NCBI GenBank assembly: GCA_023267275.1
Contig: JAHFNO010000006.1
Span: 9,519 to 73,518, forward strand
Direction of reading: 5' to 3'
Length of the DNA stretch: 64,000 nucleotides
Origin: Candidatus Nomurabacteria bacterium
GTDB lineage: Bacteria; Patescibacteriota; Minisyncoccia; Phycocordibacterales; UBA9973
The position numbers were made by a program, and so were the translations under genes. Positions 12,688 through 60,534 of the stretch are shown one piece after another. Under the pieces are notes generated by a model. The model was not told the origin of the DNA. It saw only the letters and a program-made list of their open reading frames with translations, and ran no database searches. How positions within the stretch are numbered: position 1 is the first letter of the stretch; each line of letters starts with the position of its first letter.

Positions 12688-12705
12688 TCACAAGAGCAAG
12701 AGAAC

Positions 12706-12853
12706 AATGAATTACCCCGAGCTTACGCTCGGGGTATCTTATATAGAAATACAGCAAAGCTGTATTTCCTTGTGTCCAGAGAGCCCAGGACACAAGAACT
12801 CGCTGCATCACGCGACCTTACGGTCGCGGTATTGGGTGGAAGCCCAGCGTAAT
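12706..12853 (+). repeat. 146-nt multi-hairpin repeat, copy 1 (identical copy at 28868-29015)
   Basis: Identical sequence at both loci. Hairpins CCCCGAGC-TTAC-GCTCGGGG, ATACAGC-AAA-GCTGTAT, TTGTGTCC-N10-GGACACAA and GCGACC-TTAC-GGTCGC, plus an outer CGCTG/CAGCG stem. Each copy is followed by a different intrinsic terminator. Confidence 0.7.
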
Positions 12854-12924
12854 AAAACAAAAATCAAAACCGCGCCTGGCGCGGTTTTGATTTAGTGTGT
12901 TTATGATTTCTTGTTCTGGTGTTT

Positions 12925-23101: not shown

Positions 23102-23578
23102 TTATCGAATTTTTGCAATTGCAAAACAAGTGAGCGCTACAGCGATTGCATCCACTTCATCGTCAATCATTTTGCGTTCCGGAAGTTTGATGAGACGTGG
23201 CACCATGTCCATCACTCCGCGCTTGTCACTTTTTCCATAACCAGTAACCGCTACTTTTATTTCAAGTGGTGTGTATTCAAAAATAGGGATGTGCGCTCGA
23301 GCACCTTCATACAAAAGTACACCACGGGCCTCCGCTACCACCATCGCTGTTTTCGTGTTTGTTTCAAAAAACAATTTTTCGATTGCCATACCATCCGGAT
23401 TCCATTCGGTGATCACACGAGCGACTTCTTCTCCCAAGAGAAGAAGTCGCTCGCTGTGCGAAATTTTTGCCGATGTTTTAAAACACTCAGAAAATAAAAA
23501 TGTTTCCTTGTTGCCGATTTTTTCGATTACCGCAATACCGATTCGTTCAATTCCTGGATCAATTCCTAGGATTCTCAT
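23102..23578 (-). CDS. ruvC: Holliday junction resolvase RuvC
   Basis: N-terminus MRILGIDPGIERIGIAVIE. Confidence 0.85.
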   Translation of the reverse strand: MRILGIDPGIERIGIAVIEKIGNKETFLFSECFKTSAKISHSERLLLLGEEVARVITEWNPDGMAIEKLFFETNTKTAMVVAEARGVLLYEGARAHIPIFEYTPLEIKVAVTGYGKSDKRGVMDMVPRLIKLPERKMIDDEVDAIAVALTCFAIAKIR

Positions 23579-23590
23579 AATGTCTAATAA

Positions 23591-23971
23591 CTAATTTCTA
23601 ATTTCTAAAGAATTCGCCTTTGACTTGAGCGAAATGGTAACAAAGATTTTTCGAAGTTCTTCAGCTTCTTTGTATAGTTTTTCTAATTCAGTTCTATGAA
23701 CTTCTGTTTCAATAAGTAGTCGCAACCAGTACTCTGTTTCCTGAGCTTCTTTTTTGCAAATACCAATTTTATGTTCAAAATCCTTTCTTGACTCAGCTCC
23801 ATCAGCCTCATGATAGTTTGCACCAATGCTTGTTCCGGAGCGAATACATTGCAAAATTAAATTTTGGTTTGTCATATTCCTTTGTATTTTTTTGAGAGAA
23901 AAGATTAGATTCTTGCTAAACAAAAAAGTTCTTTCTTTCAAATCATATTTTTTTGTATTGCCATTAGACAT
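23591..23971 (-). CDS. four-helix-bundle protein (TIGR02436 family), second copy
   Basis: Family signature LQCIRSGTSIGANYHEADGAESRKDFEHKIGICKKEAQETEYWLRLL. Confidence 0.75.
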   Translation of the reverse strand: MSNGNTKKYDLKERTFLFSKNLIFSLKKIQRNMTNQNLILQCIRSGTSIGANYHEADGAESRKDFEHKIGICKKEAQETEYWLRLLIETEVHRTELEKLYKEAEELRKIFVTISLKSKANSLEIRN

Positions 23972-23996
23972 TAGAAATTAGAAGTTAGATATTGGG

Positions 23997-24521
23997 TTAC
24001 TCGGCGTTTGTTAGTACTTCTTGCACCTCATTATTGTTTTCTAGTTCATCAATGAGTTTTTCGAGTGCAACACCATCTTCTTCGGAGAGGGGAACAGTCA
24101 TTGTTGGAGTAAGTTCACCATCTACTTTTTGAAATGCCCACATAACACTACCGATGGATCCAAGCGAGGAACCATTTTTATCAAGTATATGACGAATCTC
24201 TTGTGCGGCGCGATTGCGTGAATCGGTAAGTGCTTCAATAATGATTCCGACTCCGCCCGGACCGTAGGCTTCGTAGACGATTGTTTCCAAATCTTTGGCT
24301 TCAGTAGCTTTGCTAATTGCTCGTTCAATAGTATCGACTGGCATATCTGCAGCACGAGCTTTATCGATAGCACTGCGTACTGCTACGGCATTGCGATCGC
24401 CACCAGCCACTTTTACCTGCGCGGAAATCATACGGGAAAGCTTTCCAAAGAGTTGGCTTCGCTTACTATCGCTCGCACCTTTTTGACGTTGTATTTGTGA
24501 CCATTTGTTATGACCTGACAT
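23997..24521 (-). CDS. YebC/PmpR-family transcriptional regulator (short form)
   Basis: MSGHNKWSQIQRQKGASDSKRSQLFGKL ... YEAYGPGGVGIIIEALTDSRNRAAQEIRH; lies between ruvC and ruvB as in many bacteria. Confidence 0.75.
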   Translation of the reverse strand: MSGHNKWSQIQRQKGASDSKRSQLFGKLSRMISAQVKVAGGDRNAVAVRSAIDKARAADMPVDTIERAISKATEAKDLETIVYEAYGPGGVGIIIEALTDSRNRAAQEIRHILDKNGSSLGSIGSVMWAFQKVDGELTPTMTVPLSEEDGVALEKLIDELENNNEVQEVLTNAE

Positions 24522-24607
24522 ATTGCCCAGTATAAATTATCTTTTTCTAAGTAGAAAGGGTTTGACAAATATATAAAAAGGAGGATAATCGAAAAAAACT
24601 AACGCTT

Positions 24608-24862
24608 ATGTATCGCAAACATTTACAGTTTATAACAGAGTTTGGTCCAGCAAACTTTATAATTAGAAAGCAAATAGATCTCGGACACATAGAAGACCAG
24701 GATGTCTTAGATTTTATAAAAATAAGAACCGGAAAAAACTCCTTGGACGAAAACATAAAATATGAGCTGAGGCGCTTACGGAAAAAAGATATTCGATACA
24801 TTCCTTTCGGTGTGATTAATATCACAAAACCCGAATTATGTGTCGAATCTATTGAATGTTAA
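24608..24862 (+). CDS. small hypothetical protein
   Basis: ORF ends 20 nt before the terminator hairpin ATACAGCCCTGCATGCAGGGCTGTAT. Confidence 0.3.
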   Translation: MYRKHLQFITEFGPANFIIRKQIDLGHIEDQDVLDFIKIRTGKNSLDENIKYELRRLRKKDIRYIPFGVINITKPELCVESIEC

Positions 24863-25242
24863 AACGATATTGTATTTATTTATACAGCCCTGCATGCAGG
24901 GCTGTATTTTTTTAAAACCAAATATCCGGGTATTGTATAAACACAGCAACATGCTAGTATTTGTTTCAAATCCACCGCCCATGTTCTCAATACCAATCGC
25001 CCTCCTTATTTACAAATGCCGGCATTTCGTGATGCTTTATTCTGTAAAAGCAATCATTGTCGTCGCCAACTGTATCGATGAATTACACAGATCAAAAACA
25101 GGTATGTTTTTTATCAAAACAGCAGAAGCATTTGCAAAATTATCAATGTAACAGCCTGTCACTCATGATAGGCTGTTTTTCATTTCCAGATTTAGATTGC
25201 TTGTATTCCTTAAAAAGAGTGCTATTGTGAAGAAAAACTATT

Positions 25243-25767
25243 ATGAAACTTATTGATTTTAGAAAAGATCTCGATACATTCAAAAATGAATTACAGGAGA
25301 TTTTTGGAGAAAACTTCTCTCAGATAACAGAATTTCCACTTCCATTGTTTCCCGCGCTCTTCTATTTCAAACAACGGTTTAAATATGGTGAAGAAAAGGA
25401 GTATACAGTGACCCATACCCATCGTATTACGAATATTGATCCATCGAGATACCCATTTCGTGGAGCAATAGGACTCGAGAAGGATTCTTTCTCTTCATGC
25501 AGTTTCGTACTCTACGGCGGAAAATTTGAAAAGAGCGAAGAAGACCAGCTTATGTGGGTGAAAGAGGTGTTCCGATTGCGCGGAGGGATTTTTGATAAAA
25601 ATATGCCAGCTTTGAATGGCGAAGAAAAGCTCAATATCAATGCACAATTTGATTTTTCCTTGTTGCTTGATACAAAAAAAGAATTGCAGTTTATTGCAAA
25701 CATGTTCTCTGAAATAGCAGATTTATATGATTTGATGAATTCAAAAATTGAAAGCGTAAAACTATAA
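25243..25767 (+). CDS. hypothetical protein
   Basis: ORF followed by the terminator AAAAATCCCCATATTACGGGGATTTTT. Confidence 0.5.
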   Translation: MKLIDFRKDLDTFKNELQEIFGENFSQITEFPLPLFPALFYFKQRFKYGEEKEYTVTHTHRITNIDPSRYPFRGAIGLEKDSFSSCSFVLYGGKFEKSEEDQLMWVKEVFRLRGGIFDKNMPALNGEEKLNINAQFDFSLLLDTKKELQFIANMFSEIADLYDLMNSKIESVKL

Positions 25768-25837
25768 AGTAAAAATCCCCATATTACGGGGATTTTTTTG
25801 TTACTCAAACAAGTTTTTTGGAATACCCTAAAGCAAA

Positions 25838-26830
25838 TTATTGCTCGGGCGCGTCGAACCCTAAATGTTCGTAAGCCTTTTTTGTCACCGTGCGTCCGCG
25901 AGTGGTTCGCTCAAGGAGTCCGCGTTGAATGAGATACGGTTCAATCACTTCTTCGATCGTTGCTTCTTCTTCACTCGTCGCTGCCGCAATCGTGTTGAGT
26001 CCCACTGGTCCACCATTGAATTTCTCAATGATTACTTGGAGTACTTGGCGGTCGGATTCTGAAAGACCGAGTTCGTCGATACCCAAGAGGGAAAGTGCAA
26101 GAAATACAGTTTTTTTATCTAAATCTTTTTTATGCACCTGTGCGTAGTCACGGCAACGTTTCAAAAAATAGTTTGCGGTGCGGGGAGTAAAGCGCGCACG
26201 TTTTGCGATTTCTGCTACGGCATCATCGTCAATGGTTACGCCAAGCACTTTTGCTGAGCGATGAATGATCTTCGCAATTTGTTCTTCGGTATAAAATTCC
26301 AAACGAAATGTTCCACCAGAAAAACGTGAGCGGAGTGGGGCAGAAAGAAGCGCGATGCGTGTGGTTGCTGCGATAAGAGTGAATGCAGGAAGGTCGAGTT
26401 GGATTGTACGAGCGCTTGGACCTTTGCCGATAATAATATCGAGTACGCCACTTTCCATGGCAGGGTAGAGGACTTCTTCAATAGTCTTATTCAAGCGATG
26501 AATCTCGTCGACAAACAAAATATCTCCCGGTTGCAGGTTTGTAAGTATGGAAGCAAGGTCGCCAACTTTTTCAATTGCCGGCCCACTCGTCGATTTGAGC
26601 GAGCGTCCAGTTTCTTTTGCAATCAAATGGGCGAGCGTTGTCTTTCCCAATCCTGGTGGACCATAAAAAAGAATATGTTCGGCAGGATGATTGCGTTCCG
26701 AAGCAGCTTGCAAAAGAATTTTTAAATTTTCTTTGATGGATTCCTGACCAATATACTCATCAAATGAGCTTGGGCGGAGTGTCTGGTCAAGATATGAGTC
26801 GTTTTCTTTTTTTTCTTCGTTATTTTCCAT
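25838..26830 (-). CDS. ruvB: Holliday junction branch-migration ATPase RuvB
   Basis: LRPSSFDEYIGQ ... ILFYGPPGLGKTTLA. Confidence 0.9.
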   Translation of the reverse strand: MENNEEKKENDSYLDQTLRPSSFDEYIGQESIKENLKILLQAASERNHPAEHILFYGPPGLGKTTLAHLIAKETGRSLKSTSGPAIEKVGDLASILTNLQPGDILFVDEIHRLNKTIEEVLYPAMESGVLDIIIGKGPSARTIQLDLPAFTLIAATTRIALLSAPLRSRFSGGTFRLEFYTEEQIAKIIHRSAKVLGVTIDDDAVAEIAKRARFTPRTANYFLKRCRDYAQVHKKDLDKKTVFLALSLLGIDELGLSESDRQVLQVIIEKFNGGPVGLNTIAAATSEEEATIEEVIEPYLIQRGLLERTTRGRTVTKKAYEHLGFDAPEQ

Positions 26831-27381
26831 TGTTTTTTAGAATTATTTAGCTTCGTTTTGGTGTTCCTTTAGACATTAGTCATTAGACCTTAGGATTTGG
26901 GTTATAAATGACCACTCTTGACATTTGCAACCTGCTATGCTAGACTAGCAGTAATTAAATCAATACCCACTTTATACACAGGGTATACACACAGTATACC
27001 ACCTGGCCCCATAAATTTCTTTCGGGACTCAGGGTACTATAATTGGGAGGCGATTTTTTATTTTTTAGGATATACATAAATGGCGCATTTCTGAATCAGC
27101 AGATTCACTCTTGGAGGAAGTTGCTTCGCTCGTTTGTTCCCGCAATGTACCCCGTGTACATTTTGGTCACAAGCCTCGCTCGCGCCTCGAACTGCATCCA
27201 TTTCTGTTAAATCCTATTTAAGAAGGCATAAATCTCTAAGTGATCAAGTTTTCGGACTGTATAGGATCTCGTAAAGGACGTTTTGGCTCCCAGGCTCGTT
27301 TCTGGAAGTGCTGCAGCTATCCTCCGCGGTCTCCTTACTTTTAACACCTAGTTGTTGAAAGGATTATTTAGAGATTTATGC

Positions 27382-27520
27382 TTTTTTTGTTGTCAAAATA
27401 GTAAAAAAATATGTCGTTTTGAAAGACACGAAAATTTTTTGCTAAAAATTTTCTCTGTCCGTCGCCGGTCGCTCCTCCCAAGGTCTTTCAAAACGACATA
27501 CTATTTTTACAACAAAAAAA
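27382..27520. repeat. long imperfect inverted repeat (~40-bp arms, ~55-nt spacer)
   Basis: Left arm TTGTTGTCAAAATAGTAAAAAAATATGTCGTTTTGAAAGAC pairs with right arm GTCTTTCAAAACGACATACTATTTTTACAACAA. It lies inside the 0.78-kb gene-free island 26831-27617. Confidence 0.7.
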
Positions 27521-27617
27521 CAAAACTCTCTGGGTGGGGAGATGGGGGAAAATGTGAACCCAATACATTGCTAATGTTGATACTAGTTTTTTATTTATGA
27601 AAAAACCACCCAAATAA

Positions 27618-28223
27618 TTAGGTGGCTTCATTTTTTGCTACAAGCGCTGCAATTGAAAAAATTGCAGATTTACTTTTTTGAGGAAGGATATCTGGAAGAA
27701 GGATATTGCCATAGAGTTCTATTAGTTTTATTGGCATTTTTTCCCACCAGAAACTAAAGCGTTCTTTGTTGCTCATGTGTATAGAGGGTGCTTTTCTTTC
27801 AGATAAAATGACTGCATCTCGCAAAAGACAGATTTTTTCATAGGAATCTCCTTTGTATTTTTCACTCAACCACAGCACATACGGAAGTTTGCGGATCAGG
27901 CATCCTTTGATAAAAACAAGTTTTAATAACTCGGCATACCAGGCAAGAATTTCTTTTTCTTGTTTATTTGGTCCGCGACTTGTTTCCGGATCGATGATAA
28001 GACCAATACAACAATTACTCTCATCTACAATGTTTAGCAAGCTTACATTGAGTTTTTTTATTCCACCTTCAGCTCGCGGGTTTGGTACGAGCCCAAATTG
28101 AGTAATGAGAGCAAGGTTTAATACAAATTGAGCAATCGCTATGTCTAGTATTGGATGTTTTGATTCAACACAGACAATTCCTTTTTTAAGGTCATTTTTA
28201 AGAATCAAAGAAGATGTATTCAT
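27618..28223 (-). CDS. hypothetical protein
   Basis: ORF with a terminator hairpin (CCACC-N10-GGTGG plus T-run) just beyond its stop. Confidence 0.45.
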   Translation of the reverse strand: MNTSSLILKNDLKKGIVCVESKHPILDIAIAQFVLNLALITQFGLVPNPRAEGGIKKLNVSLLNIVDESNCCIGLIIDPETSRGPNKQEKEILAWYAELLKLVFIKGCLIRKLPYVLWLSEKYKGDSYEKICLLRDAVILSERKAPSIHMSNKERFSFWWEKMPIKLIELYGNILLPDILPQKSKSAIFSIAALVAKNEAT

Positions 28224-28329
28224 AAGAGTTGTTTTGCTTACTTATACTCAATCCTGCTCCGTATGTCAAAAATTCATGCATTGCTTTATTTTAGGGAAAG
28301 GTGTTTACTGAAGAAAAATTGACAACAGT

Positions 28330-28872
28330 ATGGAAAATCAAAATGTTCCACCATTGACGCTTGTTCCTCGTGTTATTGATGAGGAGACAGAAAAATGGCT
28401 TAAAAAATGGATAGAGTATATTAAAAATGTTTCTCCACGGATTCTCATTTCATCAATATTAGATGAGGATTTTAAGGAAAGAAGAAGATTGTTGATGGAA
28501 AGTATCCATCTGTATTTATGTGATGGCGACCCTAACGACACTTCAACAATTACAAATCTTAACGAGAATGACATATTATTTTTTCTCGCCATCAATCTTG
28601 CTCTTGGTGCAGAACCCCAAAAATATGCATTTAAGGATATTTGCATTTTTTGTTCAAAAGATAGGGCATTTTTTACTAAATACGAAGGATTCGATTTTGA
28701 AAACGAAAAATTTTTTCTAGGACACCGTCCAGAGGATGAGGACGAACATTGGTCTTCCTCATATTGCCACGATGTTATTTTTAATAAGTGGGAAGTTATA
28801 CTTCCTATGTTTATCAACAGATTCGCTGAGGAGTGGAAAGAAAAAGTACCACCATTTCCCGGTACACAATGA
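28330..28872 (+). CDS. hypothetical protein
   Basis: Plus-strand ORF preferred over the overlapping antisense ORF 28338-28973, which is Ser-rich and runs into the 146-nt repeat. Confidence 0.4.
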   Translation: MENQNVPPLTLVPRVIDEETEKWLKKWIEYIKNVSPRILISSILDEDFKERRRLLMESIHLYLCDGDPNDTSTITNLNENDILFFLAINLALGAEPQKYAFKDICIFCSKDRAFFTKYEGFDFENEKFFLGHRPEDEDEHWSSSYCHDVIFNKWEVILPMFINRFAEEWKEKVPPFPGTQ

Positions 28873-29015
28873 ATTACCCCGAGCTTACGCTCGGGGTATC
28901 TTATATAGAAATACAGCAAAGCTGTATTTCCTTGTGTCCAGAGAGCCCAGGACACAAGAACTCGCTGCATCACGCGACCTTACGGTCGCGGTATTGGGTG
29001 GAAGCCCAGCGTAAT
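28868..29015 (+). repeat. 146-nt multi-hairpin repeat, copy 2
   Basis: Identical to 12706-12853; followed by the terminator AAAAAACGGTTTGCGCTAAGCGCAAACCGTTTTTC. Confidence 0.7.
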
Positions 29016-29093
29016 AAAAAACGGTTTGCGCTAAGCGCAAACCGTTTTTCTTTTTGTATTTTTCTAGAAACTAGACCCTAGAACCTGCCATCA

Positions 29094-40042: not shown

Positions 40043-40089
40043 TCCTAAAAGCCCTTATTCGGTTGTCACTTGACAACCGAATAAGGGCT
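40043..40089. terminator. strong intrinsic terminator hairpin after polA
   Basis: AAAGCCCTTATTCGGTTGTCA-CTT-GACAACCGAATAAGGGCTTT: 21-bp perfect stem with an A/T-flanked bidirectional design. Confidence 0.75.
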
Positions 40090-40105
40090 TTGATATTATT
40101 AGCTG

Positions 40106-41893
40106 ATGAATAATAATGACTATATTTCAACAACCGATCTTGCTCGCATACTAGGGGTTACCAGACAAGCCATTCAAAAAAAATTAAAGGGAGAAGATGA
40201 GCTAAAAACCAAAGAAGTTGGTACTGGTTTTTTATATCAAATTGGGAGTTTACCTCAATCTATTAGAGATAGAATAAAAACAGAACAAGAAACAGCCAAG
40301 GAAAAAGCAATTTCGAAAAAAATCGGTGATAACCATCATGATCTTAATTTTGAGAAAGAGCTTTGGGCAGCCGCAGACAAACTCCGTGGAAATATCGATG
40401 TTTCCGAATATAAAAATATTGTTCTCGGACTTCTTTTTTTAAAATATATTTCTGATTCATTTTACAAGCGTCGTGAAGAACTTGAAGTGATGACTCGTGA
40501 TACCAAAAATGAGGATTTTTATGTTCCAAATGATGAATCACGCAAGCAGATTCTTGAGACAAAAGATTTTTACACGAGCGTTGGAGTTTTTTATGTTCCT
40601 GAAAAATCCCGTTGGGAATATCTTCAAACAAAAATATTGAACCCAGAATTGGCAAAAATTCTTGATGGCGCGATGGATTTGATTGAACAAGATAATCGAG
40701 CCCAACTCGAGGGAGTTCTTCCGAAAGTGTATACAAAAACGACTCTTGATCACGCGGTGCTTGGCGAACTAGTTAATATTTTTTCTCGGATTTCTTTTGA
40801 TCACAATTTCGACAGAGAAAAAGATATCCTTGGTCGCATCTATGAATATTTCCTTGGGCAGTTTGCTTCATCCGAGGGAAAACGTGGAGGTGAGTTTTTT
40901 ACTCCACGATCAATCGTTAAACTACTCGTAGAAATTCTTGAACCATATGAAAACGCGCGTGTCTTAGATCCTGCTTGTGGTAGCGGAGGTATGTTTGTAT
41001 CTATGGGTGAATATTTACATACTCATAAAATGGATCCATCAAAACTTTCTATAAGCGGACAGGAAAGCAATCAAACTACGCTTCGTCTTGCGAAAATGAA
41101 TCTTGCAATTCGGGGGCTTTCGGGGAAAATTGAGCTGGGAAACACTTACTATCAGGATAAGTTTCCAAACCTTCAAGCTGATTTTGTGATTGCCAATCCT
41201 CCGTTTAATGGCGAATGGGAACCGTCAAAACTTTCAGATAATGACCCTCGTATTATTCTTGGCACTCCGCCGTCTGGTAATGCAAATTTTATGTGGGTGC
41301 AACATTTTGCTCATCACCTTGCTCCGAATGGTCAGGCAGGGTTTGTTATGCCGAATGGCGCGCTTGCAGTGTCAGGTAAAGAAGGAGATTTGCGAAAAAA
41401 ATTAATCGAGGCAGATTTGGTCGACGTAATCATTTCTTGTCCCGGAAAACTTTTTTATAACGTTTCGCTTCCAGTTTCTTTATGGTTTTTGGCAAAAAAT
41501 AAATCCGGCGACCGCTTTCGTAAACGAAAAGGGGAAACACTCTTTATTGATGCGCGCGACACCTTTGAACAAATTTCACGCAAGCAAGTTGTTTTTAATC
41601 CTAAAAATATTGAGAAAATTACAAATACTGTTCGCGCATGGCGAGGAGAAAAAGGTGCCGATAAGTATGAAAATATTGCCGGTTTTTGTAAATCTGCAGC
41701 TCTGAAGGAAATTGAAAAAAATGGGTATGTACTTACTCCCGGCCGATATGTTGGGCTTGCGGATGTCGAAGATGATGGAATTTCATTTGAAGAAAAAATG
41801 CAAAAGCTTTCCAGCGAACTTCGTGCCGCTTTTCTGAAGGGTCGAGATTTGGAAAAACAGATTGAAAATAATTTGAAAGAATTGGGATTTTAA
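40106..41893 (+). CDS. hsdM: type I restriction-modification system methyltransferase subunit HsdM (with extra N-terminal HTH-like segment)
   Basis: Catalytic NPPFNG motif (VIANPPFNGEW) and an AdoMet-binding region. Confidence 0.85.
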   Translation: MNNNDYISTTDLARILGVTRQAIQKKLKGEDELKTKEVGTGFLYQIGSLPQSIRDRIKTEQETAKEKAISKKIGDNHHDLNFEKELWAAADKLRGNIDVSEYKNIVLGLLFLKYISDSFYKRREELEVMTRDTKNEDFYVPNDESRKQILETKDFYTSVGVFYVPEKSRWEYLQTKILNPELAKILDGAMDLIEQDNRAQLEGVLPKVYTKTTLDHAVLGELVNIFSRISFDHNFDREKDILGRIYEYFLGQFASSEGKRGGEFFTPRSIVKLLVEILEPYENARVLDPACGSGGMFVSMGEYLHTHKMDPSKLSISGQESNQTTLRLAKMNLAIRGLSGKIELGNTYYQDKFPNLQADFVIANPPFNGEWEPSKLSDNDPRIILGTPPSGNANFMWVQHFAHHLAPNGQAGFVMPNGALAVSGKEGDLRKKLIEADLVDVIISCPGKLFYNVSLPVSLWFLAKNKSGDRFRKRKGETLFIDARDTFEQISRKQVVFNPKNIEKITNTVRAWRGEKGADKYENIAGFCKSAALKEIEKNGYVLTPGRYVGLADVEDDGISFEEKMQKLSSELRAAFLKGRDLEKQIENNLKELGF

Positions 41894-43917: not shown

Positions 43918-44598
43918 ATGGATAAAACTAATTTAACTGAATTCCAACAATACTTATATGATCAACACAAGGAAACATCTGAAATGAGGTCAAAATTCGG
44001 GCGTGAATTCCTGACTATTTTTAGCAATGCCAATAAATCAAGGATTGAACTTTCTAAACATATCACCATGCTCACTGTTGGATTGCTTGCTGTGGGTGTT
44101 TTTTGGCAAACTGGAAGTTTATATGCGAAGGTTGGATTTGGTTTTGCGCTGATAACTATTGTTTTTACCGTATTCTTTCTACGCGAAAGAATTGATCAAG
44201 AGGGAAGAGAAGCTGTAACGATGATAAAGGTTTACAATGCGATGTTTGATAAATACCTTAGCATAATTCTCGCAGCAGTTAAAAAAGATAACCCCAAAGA
44301 ATATTTCCAAAACCTAAATAATTTTCTCGAGAAAGATCCTGATTTTTTGAACATTCAGAATAATTACGAAAGTAGTTTAATTAGAAACGAGATTCTTGAT
44401 TACGGTGGAGAAGTCGTGAATTTTCTATTTCTTTCTACACTAACATTCTATGTATTAGCTTTTTTATCAATCCAGTTTAATTTTATTTTGGTAGTATTAG
44501 TTATCACCCTTACTTTTTCATTTTCAGTATTTGAAACAGCAAGTTTTATTCTCCGACCTTTAAATAGATGGTTAAATAAAAATATATCTAGGAAATAA
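43918..44598 (+). CDS. hypothetical 4-TM membrane protein inside the RM locus
   Basis: Hydrophobic helices (LTVGLLAVGVFW, FGFALITIVFTVFFL, two C-terminal); no known motif. Confidence 0.5.
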   Translation: MDKTNLTEFQQYLYDQHKETSEMRSKFGREFLTIFSNANKSRIELSKHITMLTVGLLAVGVFWQTGSLYAKVGFGFALITIVFTVFFLRERIDQEGREAVTMIKVYNAMFDKYLSIILAAVKKDNPKEYFQNLNNFLEKDPDFLNIQNNYESSLIRNEILDYGGEVVNFLFLSTLTFYVLAFLSIQFNFILVVLVITLTFSFSVFETASFILRPLNRWLNKNISRK

Positions 44599-44599
44599 T

Positions 44600-44666
44600 A
44601 TGAACCCCTCAACGAAAAAAACATAGCGGAAGAATCCCTCATCGACTGGCTGAAAGGTGAGGGGGG
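44600..44666 (+). pseudogene. degenerate duplicate of the hsdR 5' end (frameshifted fragment)
   Basis: About 65 nt are near-identical to 45890-45956 but one C is missing from the C-run, so it reads MNPSTKKT-stop. Confidence 0.7.
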
Positions 44667-44754: not shown

Positions 44755-45885
44755 ATGCAACAAATATTTAAAGCAGGTATATATAGACAACAACTGGAAT
44801 ACAAGAGTTTCAGCCCTTTTCCTATCAATAAACAATTTGAGTGGACTGATAAGAAAATAAATATGCTTTCAGATGAGGCTATGCGTCTTTTGGGTGAACT
44901 TAATGCTTATTCCACACTCGTTCCTGATGTGAATTATTTTATAAAAATGCACATCGCAAAAGAAGCGACGAAATCAAGCCGAATTGAAGGTACAAAAACA
45001 AATATCGATGAAGTGCTTCTTTCTAAAGAAGATGTTGATCCTGAACGACGAGATGATTGGAAGGAGGTGCATAATTATATTGTAGCGATGAATCAGGCAA
45101 TAAAAGAACTCTCAACCCTACCACTTTCAATGCGTCTTTTGAAAAACGCTCATAAAATACTTTTAACACACGTGCGCGGAGAGCACAAAACCCCAGGGGA
45201 GATTCGCATCAGTCAAAATTGGATAGGTGGTTCAAGTCTAAAAGACGCGTTCTTTATACCACCTCATCCAAGTGAAGTTGGAGAACTTATTTCTGATCTT
45301 GAAAAATTTTGGCACAACAGAAATCTTGAAATTCCATTCCTAATAAAAATGGCAATAAGTCATTATCAGTTTGAGACAATTCACCCGTTCCTAGATGGCA
45401 ACGGAAGAATAGGACGACTGCTCATTACTTTGCAGTTAGTTGATAAAAAGATACTCCAGAGACCGACCTTGTATCTTTCCGATTTTTTTGAAAGAAACAA
45501 AGGTTCGTATTATGATTCGCTGACCCTTGTTCGTTCTTCTAACAATATAGAGCAATGGATTAAATTTTTTCTTTCAGGTGTAATTGAAACAGCCCATAAG
45601 GGTAAGGAAACATTTGAAAAAATAATCGTATTGCGCCAAAAATATGAGCAAAAAATCATGAAATTGGGTCGTCGAGCCGAACTCGGACAGCGGTTGCTAA
45701 TTAAACTCTTTTCTCAACCGATATTAAATGTAAATCAGATTGCAAAGGAATTGGATATTACATTTCCTACAGCATCGTCGCTTGTGGACGAGTTTGAGCA
45801 AAAAGGCATTCTAAAGGAAGTTACCGGTTTTTCAAGAAACCGTTCTTTTGAGTTGTTTGAGTATGTTGAATTGTTTAGGAATTAA
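44755..45885 (+). CDS. fic: Fic/DOC family protein (AMPylation-type motif)
   Basis: Fic motif [12 protein letters not shown]; C-terminal winged-helix-like region. Confidence 0.85.
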
Positions 45886-45889
45886 TTAT

Positions 45890-48800
45890 ATGAACCCCCT
45901 CAACGAAAAAAACATAGCGGAAGAATCCCTCATCGACTGGCTGAAAGGCGAGGGGTATGAGTATGTAAAAGGTACAGATATCGCCCCGGGGCAGCCTCGT
46001 GCGGAGCGCGAGGATTTCCGGGGTGTGGTTTTAAAAGACCGCCTGCTTGGAGCTATTCGTAGGATCAATCCACAACTGCCTGCTGAACAGGCGGAACAAG
46101 TTGTTGTCGATATTGCCTCGTATCACAATGCTGATTTAATGCTCGGAAACAAGGAGATGTTTTCTTTTATTACAGAAGGAGTAAAAAGGACTTGGCAAGA
46201 ACAAGGAAATGAAAAAACAGAAATAGTAAAGTTGATTGATTTCGAGAATAAAGATGCGAATGAGTTCCTTGTAGTCAATCAATTTACGGTGCAGGGGGTT
46301 GACTCACTCGGTCGTCCCGATGTCGTTATTTTCATAAATGGATTGCCACTTGCGGTGTTCGAGCTGAAGAGCCCGGTACGACAAACCGCTGATATCCGTG
46401 AGGCATACAGAGATATTGAGGATTACAAAAAAGAAATACCGAAACTTTTTTTCTACAACCAGATTGTAGCGATTTCGGATTTATTCCACGCGCATCATGG
46501 AACGATCTCATCTTCGTGGGAACGTTATGGCACATGGAAGGGAATAAAAAATGAAACTGATGTTCCGAAAGATACAGAGGAACTCGAAGTGTTATTGAAA
46601 GGGCTTTTCAATAAGGAGCGGCTTTTGGATGTGATCGAAAACTTTATTGTTTTTGAAGCAAGTGGTGATGGTGATGCCGTAACATATACAAAAAAGATGT
46701 GTTTGTATCATCAGTATTATGGTGTCAATAAAACAATTGAGAGTACGATTCGCTCAGTTCTCGGCAAGCAAGATAGAAAAATCGGCGTATTTTGGCACAC
46801 ACAAGGATCAGGCAAATCGCTCTCAATGGTTTTTTATGTGAACAAAACAAAAAATATACCTGAGCTCAAAAGTCCGGCGTATGTGTTTTTGACTGATCGT
46901 GAAGATTTAGACGACCAGTTGTTTAAGACATTCAATCACACCGGATATGGAACTCTAGCCAAGAAGGCCTCAAGCATCAAAGATTTGCGCAGTCGACTTA
47001 CGTATATTGGCGGGGAACTTATTTTCACGACAATTCAAAAGTTTCAAGAAGATCCTGACGCGCATGAGGCCTTGAGTTTGCGCGAGAACATTATTGTTTT
47101 GGCCGACGAAGCGCACCGCACGCAGTATAGCAATCTGGCAGGCAATGTTCGTCTTGCACTGCCGAATGCGAGTTTTTTGGGAGTCACAGGTACGCCGATT
47201 GCTCGGAATGACAAAGATACAGTACGGGTGTTTGGCCCAGTTGTGAGTTCGTATAAGATCAGTCAATCAGTCAAAGACAAATCAACCGTGCCAATTTATT
47301 ACGAGGGGCGGCTTGTGCCACTCCATCTCGCTGATCAATTAATCGACAGCAAATTCGACGCGGTTCTCGGTGAAGTTGTGCCGGATGATAACGCACGAAT
47401 GCGTAAGGAGTATGCAGTGCTTGAGGAAGTCGTGGGCGCACCGAGCCGAATAGAGAAAATCGCACAGGATGTCATACATCATTTTAATAATCATCCAATT
47501 GAAGGTAAGGCCATGATTGTGACGATGAGCCGCCGAATCGCGGTGCTTATGTATGAGGCCATCCAAAAGATACCTAGTGTTCCAGAAGTGGCAGTCGTGA
47601 TTTCAAACAACGATGAATATAGTTCAAGAATTCAAAAGGAACATAATATAAAAACTTTAGAGCGAAGGTTTAAAGATGACAAAGATCCGCTCAAAATCGC
47701 CATTCTTTGTGATATGTGGCTCACCGGTTTTGACGTTCCGTGTATGCATACACTGTATCTCGATAAGCCTCTCAAAAATCATGGCTTGATGCAGGCGATA
47801 GCTCGCGTGAATCGAGTGTATAAAGACAAGCCAGGAGGTTTGGTTGTGGACTATATTGGTATTGCAGAGAATTTGAAAAAAGCACTTGCGTGGTATGACT
47901 CCGACATACAAAATGATGCGCTTGTTCCTATTTCCGAAGTTGTAGAGCAAATGAATATTCTCCGTGATCAAGTCACCAAATTTTTCGGGAAACTCGACTA
48001 TACTGCATGGAAGAAACTAAAAGGTATTGAGCTTGTCACAATTATGCAGGCAGGAATGAATGAGGTCATCACTCAAGGTGGCATATTAAATGACGAACAG
48101 AAGATGAAATACATGGGTACAGTTTCTAAGCTTTCAAAATTACACGCACTTGTAATGCCGGGGGATGAAGCTATGAAAATAATATCGGATCTCCAATTTT
48201 TTCAGGCTATACGAGAGGCAATTCGCAAACAAACTGTTTTGCCGCATGCGATATTCCCTGAAGAAACGGAAAGCGCGATTCGTAGCCTGATGCATAATTC
48301 AATTCAGGCTGAGGGCATCGTTGATCTTTTTAGCGTCCCAGGAGAAGAGAAGAAAAGTATTTCGATATTTGATGAGAAGTTTATTGAAGGTATCCGAAAA
48401 TCACACTACCAGAATTTTGCAGTCGATTCTGTGCGAAAATTGCTCGATCAGGAAATACGATCACGAATGCGATTGAATAATGCTCGATACGAAACAATGC
48501 TCTCGCTTCTTGAGGGTTTGATTGAAAAATATGAGAACAATGTAATTAGTTCTGCTGAAATTATAAAGCAGTTGCTTGAAATTGCAGATGGTATTAAAAA
48601 GCTAGATCAAGAAAGTAAGGAAACAGGACTCTCGAATGAAGAAATTGTTTTTTATGATTCTTTAGCCACCGACCCTGATCTAAAAAAAGCCGGAATTGAT
48701 ATTAAAGAATTTGTAAAGGAATTAACAAGGCGTATTCGACGTGATTTGGCAATCGATTGGACAAACAATGAAACAATCAAAGCTCGTATTCGTCAGAATG

Positions 48801-52193: not shown

Positions 52194-52266
52194 CCGCCCG
52201 TAGCTCAGCTGGTAGAGCAGCTCCCTTTTAAGGAGAGGGTCGCAGGTTCGATTCCTGCCGGGCGGA
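52194..52266 (+). tRNA. tRNA-Lys (anticodon UUU)
   Basis: Manual fold: acceptor CCGCCCG/CGGGCGG, D-loop AGCTGGTA, anticodon loop CTTTTAA, T-arm GCAGG-TTCGATT-CCTGC, discriminator A. No CCA is encoded. Confidence 0.85.
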
Positions 52267-52373
52267 CACTTACAAAAATGAGCTCGACTTTTAGGTCGAG
52301 CCATTTTTGTGTGTCCGCCCGGAGAAAGCCAACTTCTCATTCAGCAGAATGACTCTTGGAGTAAGGCTTTCGT

Positions 52374-55412: not shown

Positions 55413-55505
55413 ACACAAAGATTATCTTAAGATAATCTTTGTGTCAACCGTTGGTATATTACGCTCTTACTTATTATTATTGACAAAAAGTTTTTATGCA
55501 GTAGT

Positions 55506-60135: not shown

Positions 60136-60534
60136 ATGTCTATTGTGTTGTTTTTGTGGCGTAAAGCCGTTTTTTGAATTGGTTGCCCCAAGGGCTATCA
60201 AGCCATTCAGGCAACCAATTCAAGTTAAAGCAACCTTATTTTCAAAGGATATACTTATGTTTAGTATAACATATACATCATAAAAAGTCAAGCAAAATAA
60301 CCTTGTAAAATAAGGGTAGAAAAGCTAAGAAGAGTATAAAAATGGGGAATTTTGACCCAAAATCTGCCATAGATTATATTAACTAATCGTTATTTCCTTA
60401 GCGAACTTTTTCAGCAGAAAAAGATTTGTGACCGATACGTGTACTCATTTCCTGTCAGGATCACATCCTCGTGATGGCTCATGAGGAGTTTAAGAAGCTC
60501 TACATAAAGTACCCCCCCAATTGGTTTAAATGTA

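Follow-up and report, generated by a model that had tools for sequence, protein, structure and literature searches.

The gene-free island beside ruvB at 26831-27617 holds a real, unannotated and conserved non-coding RNA gene, here called RNA-A. It lies in the window, the whole stretch of 64,000 nt that was analysed, from a bacterium of the class Paceibacteria (CPR). By RuvB, the nearest relatives are metagenome-assembled genomes that carry the labels Nomurabacteria, Paceibacteria and Minisyncoccia. The island as a whole is probably a compound, made up of the RNA-A gene, a palindromic repeat that we call element B, the upstream region of ruvB and the terminator of a 201-aa open reading frame (ORF).

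The CPR bacteria (Patescibacteria) account for a large share of bacterial diversity. Hardly any of them have been cultured, and non-coding DNA is scarce in their tiny genomes. The literature that we searched contained no survey of non-coding RNAs from these bacteria. RNA-A is very likely to be important to the biology of Paceibacteria because it is retained throughout the class, has one of the few near-consensus promoters of the region and keeps an intricate fold. It is a concrete and testable candidate, which can be traced in existing metatranscriptomes and can serve as bait to retrieve its protein partner, and its addition to the RNA family databases would let such gene-free islands be annotated.

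The gene-free island and its surroundings

The island is bounded by ruvB and the 201-aa ORF. The features at its two borders are as follows:

25838-26830, minus strand: ruvB, with the RuvB_N, AAA_lid_4 and RuvB_C domains (Pfam)
26871-26904, minus strand: 34-nt motif TAACCCAAATCCTAAGGTCTAATGACTAATGTCT, 41 nt upstream of the ruvB start codon
27601-27629, minus strand: terminator hairpin GAAGCCACCUAAUUAUUUGGGUGGUUUUUUC at the end of the 201-aa ORF, with T-runs on both strands
27618-28223, minus strand: 201-aa ORF, function unassigned, no Pfam match

The initial annotation had described this interval as free of genes, and the description stood. Its longest ORFs are 82, 55 and 53 aa, they are not conserved, and a Pfam scan of the island ORFs gave no matches; the 82-aa ORF passes through the long hairpin of element B. 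The accompanying statement that spacers are typically shorter than 120 nt agrees with the median of 73 nt in the window (crude ORF map, n = 67), but 16 of the 67 spacers exceed 120 nt and seven exceed 300 nt, so that the island is among the largest gaps of the window and not the sole large one. It had also been noted that RNase P RNA, tmRNA, SRP RNA and 6S RNA are not recognisable elsewhere in the window. A scan of the whole 64 kb against Rfam at gathering thresholds agreed with this, finding two tRNAs only and none of these four RNAs, and ARAGORN found no tmRNA. A suppressor tRNA called by ARAGORN at 52194-52267 (plus strand, anticodon UUA) was rejected as a misregister of one base: standard numbering gives the loop CUUUUAA, the anticodon UUU and the assignment tRNA-Lys, and this tRNA is closely similar to the tRNA-Lys of E. 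coli.

The 34-nt motif at 26871-26904 probably belongs to the promoter or 5' region of ruvB. A second copy (23966-23999, minus strand) overlaps the start of a four-helix-bundle (23S_rRNA_IVP) gene upstream of ruvC, which makes two matches in the window with 0 expected; the common pattern is TAACCCAA..TCTAA..TCTAAT..CTAATGTCT. The motif may be a common promoter or operator of the recombination genes, or a duplicated 5' region. An ATG inside the ruvB copy opens an upstream ORF of nine codons. The recombination genes occupy 23102-26830 in the order ruvB, a 174-aa ORF, yebC, the four-helix-bundle gene and ruvC, with no ruvA beside ruvB. The position upstream of ruvB is usually occupied by ruvA; in Paceibacteria it is filled by RNA-A, on the opposite strand.

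Most relatives have pilB directly after RNA-A, and here about 1.7 kb of extra DNA is found between the two. This stretch (27393-29093) contains element B, the 201-aa ORF (minus strand) and a 180-aa ORF (plus strand) that overlaps a 211-aa ORF (minus strand). Neither these three ORFs nor the 174-aa ORF (25243-25767) had a match by tblastn in the related loci, and the 201-, 180- and 174-aa ORFs had none in Pfam. The stretch looks like a small variable islet. Three contigs with an identical RuvB, from independent assemblies of the same or a near-identical strain (L001, L002 and L003), end 38-90 nt upstream of ruvB or within the 201-aa ORF, which suggests strain-level variation or difficulty of assembly in the region of the RNA-A leader and element B.

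Several further elements were observed in the window. A perfect direct repeat of 154 nt (12704-12857 and 28866-29019, 100% identity) forms four consecutive hairpins, and each copy is then followed by its own, different terminator-like hairpin. It matched nothing in Rfam, no homologue was present in the fetched loci, and it could be a small RNA or encode a peptide of about 50 aa (MNYPELTLGVSY...). A direct repeat of 72 nt (44594-44664 / 45884-45955, 96% identity) flanks the gene at 44755-45885, and a perfect palindrome of 32 nt lies at 55413-55444. Strong promoter patterns occur at only four sites in the 64 kb, namely 26918, 40070 and 57537 (plus strand) and 60263-60291 (minus strand). The site at 40070-40099 stops 7 nt short of the start codon (ATG) of the gene at 40106, and this suggests that the mRNA of this gene is leaderless.

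Structure and transcription signals of RNA-A

Eighty ruvB loci, from contigs taken at one genome per species, formed the comparison set. Against the RuvB-anchored relatives, only 27217-27391 is conserved in the island (86-88% identity in the two nearest, and recognisable in many others), and this segment consists of an inverted repeat (27220-27245 / 27362-27387) together with the sequence that it encloses. In the relatives it is always found immediately upstream of ruvB, in the orientation opposite to that gene. In a first alignment of 12 sequences, compensatory changes were present in 18 of the 37 predicted pairs. The covariance model made from this alignment detected RNA-A in practically all Paceibacteria ruvB loci, at RuvB identities down to 59%, and the loci that carry it are labelled Nomura-, Kaiser-, Ryan-, Zambryski- and Sungiibacteria. 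Two loci (L022 and L035) were missed by the model, yet they carry recognisable divergent versions of RNA-A. The parts of RNA-A in the window are as follows:

27216-27392, plus strand: RNA-A, conserved structured small RNA gene (covariance-model match, 154 bits)
27220-27245 / 27362-27387, plus strand: P1, closing helix of 26 bp with the core AAUCUCUAAG/CUUAGAGAUU; 21 of 25 pairs compensatory
27247-27258, plus strand: P2, small hairpin, missing in some family members
27263-27335, plus strand: long arm P3-P4-P5 (comparative and minimum-energy fold)
27263-27272 / 27326-27335, plus strand: P3, long-range helix with GC/AU/UA/CG alternation in the 88-sequence alignment
27275-27278 / 27320-27323, plus strand: P4, invariant AGGA/UCCU (comparative fold)
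27280-27317, plus strand: P5 and hypervariable tip; the tip holds GGAAG...GCAGC
27338-27361, plus strand: P6, hairpin with conserved CUUU.../...AAAG, abutting the 3' strand of P1; 5 of 5 pairs compensatory
27381-27387, plus strand: U7 tract, ending the 3' strand of P1

The helices meet in a tight four-way junction with 0-4 unpaired bases between them. Family members range from 147 to 190 nt, with a P1 of 26-30 bp and a P3-P5 arm of about 20-25 bp. Minimum-energy folding, which had been proposed as a check, gave the comparative fold from the window sequence alone (z = -5.8). RNA-A would be a structured small RNA of about 165-175 nt, made from a stand-alone gene on the plus strand.

The covariation statistics were calculated from 21 RuvB-anchored sequences only, none of which had been chosen by an RNA pattern. 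In these, 93.6% of the cells are paired, and both partners have changed in 32 of the 41 pairs. The covariation score was 0.505, compared with 0.196 for shuffles (0.505 was reached in none of 500) and 0.09-0.16 for controls in which the pairing partners were slid. The strand of RNA-A was fixed as plus because G-U pairs outnumber A-C mismatches by 636 to 101 in the paired columns. The RNAalifold consensus energy was -73.8 kcal/mol on the plus strand vs -43.6 kcal/mol on the minus strand, and the plus-strand fold was the more stable one in 81 of 88 sequences. The covariance-model score (154 bits on plus, 39 on minus) was discounted as evidence for the strand because the model had been built from plus-strand sequences.

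These results bear on the possibility that the conserved inverted repeat acts as DNA, for example as a cruciform or as a recombination or binding site near ruvB, or that the region encodes a small protein. A long inverted repeat does lie here beside the gene of a Holliday-junction helicase, and ORFs of 34-46 aa overlap the region. However, the asymmetry between G-U pairs and A-C mismatches is unexpected for a cruciform, which needs both strands paired, and the internal helices covary as well. A small protein was rejected on the grounds that the lengths of family members differ by numbers that are not multiples of three, that the ORFs are not conserved and that they have no Pfam matches. Both forms of this explanation are largely refuted, and we regard them as very improbable in comparison with an RNA gene.

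The conservation of sequence within the helices has to be read with some care. The family members collected from metagenomes were gathered by a pattern that fixes parts of P1 and P4, and the invariance of these parts is in some measure a sampling artefact. We had taken the invariance of the P1 core as a sign of sequence-specific recognition, and this is partly withdrawn, since the selecting pattern contains the core and distant RuvB-anchored members change the core with compensation.

The signals that would govern the transcription of RNA-A lie between ruvB and P1:

26918-26946, plus strand: RNA-A promoter, TTGACA-17-TAGACT with a TG-extended -10 (TGCTAGACT); 10 of 12 matches plus TG
26947-27215, plus strand: RNA-A leader of 269 nt, the longest among 88, with a modest folding signal (z = -2.5)

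The promoter-like sequence at 26918-26946 had been flagged in the initial annotation and is indeed present. The site alone is not above chance (2 found vs 3.0 expected), and it is taken as the promoter of RNA-A because comparison shows that it is conserved. It is retained base for base in L004 and L005, lying about 20 nt from the RNA in the latter. More generally, the pattern TTGAC[AT]-N13-15-TGnTAnnnT is found on the RNA strand 5-269 nt upstream in 88 of 90 family members, against a background of 121 sites in 1.48 Mb (both strands), four of them in the window. The first part of the leader (26947-27005) is common to L004 and the remainder (27006-27215) is specific to this genome; homologues of the remainder were found in no fetched locus and are missing even at RuvB identities of 88-90%. 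A further strong -10 had been proposed near 27035. The sequence TACTATAAT is present at 27035-27043, but no -35 accompanies it and it is not conserved. A start site that is nearer to RNA-A and weaker is still conceivable in this window, because the distance of 269 nt to the promoter is the largest in the family.

Of 91 members, 61 have a run of U at the 3' end of P1, and a separate terminator hairpin is found in most of the others. In the window the 26-bp P1 followed by U7 (27381-27387) has the form of an intrinsic terminator. Transcription of RNA-A would run away from ruvB, starting from the extended -10 promoter at 26918-26946, and would stop at the closing helix of the RNA itself plus U7. 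The variable 5' leader would probably be trimmed, for example by RNase III within the long perfect P1. RNA-A is considered a stand-alone RNA gene and not a 5' leader because the next downstream gene is convergent.

The palindromic element B

The long hairpin in the island is an element distinct from RNA-A:

27382-27520, strand unassigned: element B, palindromic repeat (the covariance-model match covers 27412-27499)

Its arms lie at 27382-27427 and 27483-27520, and the element spans 139 nt with a folding energy of -49.2 kcal/mol (z = -11.3 vs shuffles). It begins inside the U-tract of RNA-A. The hairpin had been singled out in the initial annotation, and its presence was confirmed, including by folding, but it is not the conserved RNA of the island; this candidate was rejected because the closest relatives, L004 and L005, lack element B. 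Among the interpretations that had been offered for it (a MITE, an attenuator or a part of a large structured RNA), the first comes closest, as copies exist in related genomes, and the other two do not apply.

Element B consists of a long perfect-type stem and an asymmetric core. The core, about 55 nt long, contains two small hairpins (GGAUAUUUUC-UUGCUA-GAAAAUUCC and GCGC-CGUC-GCGC) and is conserved between copies, and the sequence of the stem varies. Pairing is nevertheless kept in 93% of the cells, and 24 of 29 pairs have changed on both sides. These changes are almost all from one Watson-Crick pair to another, with hardly any G-U, and for this reason they point to a palindrome that is maintained on both strands or at the level of DNA.

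A profile of the loop found relatives in L127, L008 and L152 (two each) and in L184, L015, L119 and L014, and 11 matches in all were obtained in 818 kb of Paceibacteria loci, with paired copies within 2 kb in L127, L008 and L152. In the 64-kb window there is one copy only, and blastn, nhmmer and the covariance model found no further one. L008 carries the element at a place where the near-identical L163 is empty. Of the 11 copies, six follow RNA-A at a distance of up to about 200 nt, on its strand, and no fewer than two come immediately after ruvB. No target-site duplication was evident at the borders and no terminal inverted repeats are conserved. No viral match was found for the hairpin, and a permissive Rfam scan gave only chance matches to microRNA precursors on it.

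These observations fit a sporadically gained, terminator-associated palindromic repeat. Element B would have been gained in this lineage directly after the U-tract and would be unrelated to the fold of RNA-A. It resembles REP/REPIN and MITE-like repeats in being an intergenic long hairpin of about 90-140 nt, with two copies less than 2 kb apart in some genomes, variable presence at orthologous sites and a position beside terminators. It differs from them in that the asymmetric core is conserved and not the arms, which stay paired by Watson-Crick changes only. Even these streamlined genomes thus contain a structured palindromic repeat, which is gained and lost beside terminators.

Distribution and identity of RNA-A

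A DNA pattern derived from the alignment occurs once in the window (0 expected) and matched at least 120 metagenome stretches. Among the metagenome matches listed, 65 were true RNA-A members by the covariance model. In all, at least 92 distinct homologues were collected, every one of them in Paceibacteria, and RNA-A is single-copy in every stretch examined. Many of the loci came from the Hainich wells. In a negative control, 47 ruvB loci from outside the CPR (Chloroflexi, Firmicutes and others) gave no RNA-A match. A phage or viral origin was rejected, as no family member was present among 66 viral contigs that matched a loose pattern.

The neighbourhood of RNA-A is strongly conserved. The ruvB gene is adjacent and divergent in 59 of the 65 pattern-selected loci (the other six have less than 215 nt of upstream sequence) and the same holds for every RuvB-anchored Paceibacteria locus. 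Between 38 and 386 nt separate the two genes, the 386 nt of the window being the largest gap. On the other side, 63 of 76 loci have a convergent pilB no further than 1.2 kb away, often within a few bases of the 3' end of RNA-A. Over a wider range, ruvC is found on the far side of ruvB in 37 of 42 loci, and pilB comes no further than 3 kb away in 34 of 37, so that the conserved order of the block is pilB - RNA-A - ruvB - (yebC) - ruvC.

The complete adjacency to ruvB could mean a local regulatory rather than a housekeeping role. RNA-A would then act, by strong convergent transcription or by an RNA duplex (cis-antisense or transcription interference), between the co-directional pilB and ruvB, and would tune or uncouple ruvB and perhaps pilB. 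Besides the fixed position between these two genes, the gap of down to 38 nt is in keeping with such a role since the two promoters must then overlap, and no good U-tract follows the helix on the minus strand, which, as a reading of the sequence, makes read-through from pilB across the element plausible. However, the linkage to ruvB may be inherited gene order and not function, because the wider block is syntenic at similar rates. In addition, an antisense RNA or a roadblock needs no four-way junction, no invariant internal helix and no strand-specific G-U pairs, and in the window RNA-A is 386 nt away from ruvB and has 1.7 kb of other genes between itself and pilB. We therefore judge a purely local regulator to be improbable, and a new RNA family remains the preferred reading of RNA-A.

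The suggestion that the island holds an unannotated housekeeping RNA proved right in one respect, as it contains an unannotated conserved RNA gene with the promoter that had been flagged; it did not hold for the named candidates. The Rfam 15 scans covered the window at the gathering threshold, positions 26700-27750 with E<=10 and 20 related loci with E<=5. No family matched RNA-A in the window or in the 20 loci, and the proposed models for RNase P RNA, tmRNA, SRP RNA and 6S RNA had no match in the island even at E<=10. Every curated Rfam family was rejected for RNA-A, as the only matches were chance ones to plant microRNA precursors and assorted sRNAs. RNase P RNA, which is usually longer than 270 nt, is further excluded by the family length of 147-190 nt and by the lack of the P4, CR-I and CR-V core motifs in the alignment. 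For tmRNA, size and missing core motifs are likewise exclusive, and neither ARAGORN nor Rfam found a tRNA-like domain with a tag reading frame in the window. A riboswitch or 5' leader was rejected since the gene that comes next runs towards RNA-A in 63 of 76 loci, where it is pilB, and likewise in the window, and since the terminator follows directly after P1. Our search of the literature in full text found no description of such an RNA, and none from CPR bacteria.

The most defensible statement is that RNA-A is a new class-wide RNA family, with its function to be tested. To judge from its sequence, it is most likely an abundant, stable and trans-acting RNA that binds protein; abundance, processing and protein binding are suggested because the promoter is strong, the leader is variable and the long perfect P1 carries conserved internal motifs. 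On balance we favour, with some reservation, a previously undescribed class, that is, a strongly expressed single-copy RNA with a four-way junction, present in the whole of Paceibacteria and with no known homologue, which may be the RNA part of a ribonucleoprotein specific to these episymbionts with reduced genomes, and in that role either a stand-in for 6S RNA or something without precedent.

Among the known RNAs, the bacterial SRP (4.5S) RNA resembles RNA-A in the pairing of its ends in a long helix and in a strong promoter with a variable 5' leader that would need trimming; the 4.5S precursor of E. coli also needs to be trimmed at its 5' end. Unlike SRP RNA, RNA-A has no GNRA-capped helix 8 with symmetric and asymmetric loops, and the tip of its arm is hypervariable, ranging from a bare UUCG to 40 nt. 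The GGAAG...GCAGC at 27300-27330, in which the initial annotation had seen a weak likeness to SRP domain IV, belongs to this tip and is missing in the relatives, so that this assignment was abandoned together with SRP RNA itself, for which there is no conserved helix 8 and no Rfam match.

6S RNA is a decoy of RNA polymerase-sigma70 that mimics an open promoter. It is the most plausible known housekeeping RNA for RNA-A, which would then be a highly divergent Paceibacteria version that Rfam misses through drift, although we consider this unlikely. The two share a size of about 150-200 nt, a mostly double-stranded form with the ends paired in a long closing helix (26-30 bp in RNA-A), a second arm (about 20-25 bp) with a variable terminal loop, and a single-copy gene with its own promoter, which is very strong in RNA-A. 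Distant members of RNA-A keep the structure while the sequence drifts, and 6S RNAs are known for conservation of structure only. No canonical 6S RNA is present in the window, but as the window is only 64 kb, such a gene could sit elsewhere in the genome. As a weak guess by analogy, RNA-A might be a 6S-like rod that binds RNA polymerase, because its central junction has a helical arm on either side (one of about 27 bp, the other of 20-25 bp). Unlike 6S RNA (ssrS; RF00013), however, RNA-A has a centre that is a tight three- or four-way junction, in which the strands fold as the covarying hairpins P2 and P6 (5 of 5 pairs in P6) and leave no open bubble of 10 bases or more. It also has an invariant AGGA/UCCU helix (P4) and a conserved P1 core, such conservation of sequence being untypical of 6S RNA, as well as a built-in 3' terminator, and it had no RF00013 match at any threshold tried (E<=10 over 1 kb, E<=5 in the 20 related loci).

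The closest parallel in kind to a new family is found among lineage-specific orphan RNAs. Weinberg et al. reportedly described in 2010, by comparative genomics, structured small RNAs of this sort such as the Bacteroidales-1 and Chlorobi-1 type motifs. RNA-A has no relation to them in sequence or structure; all of them are in Rfam and none matches, and RNA-A comes from the CPR. Like them, it is a gene of unassigned function that runs from promoter to terminator, is confined to one lineage, shows strong covariation and keeps a fixed neighbourhood.
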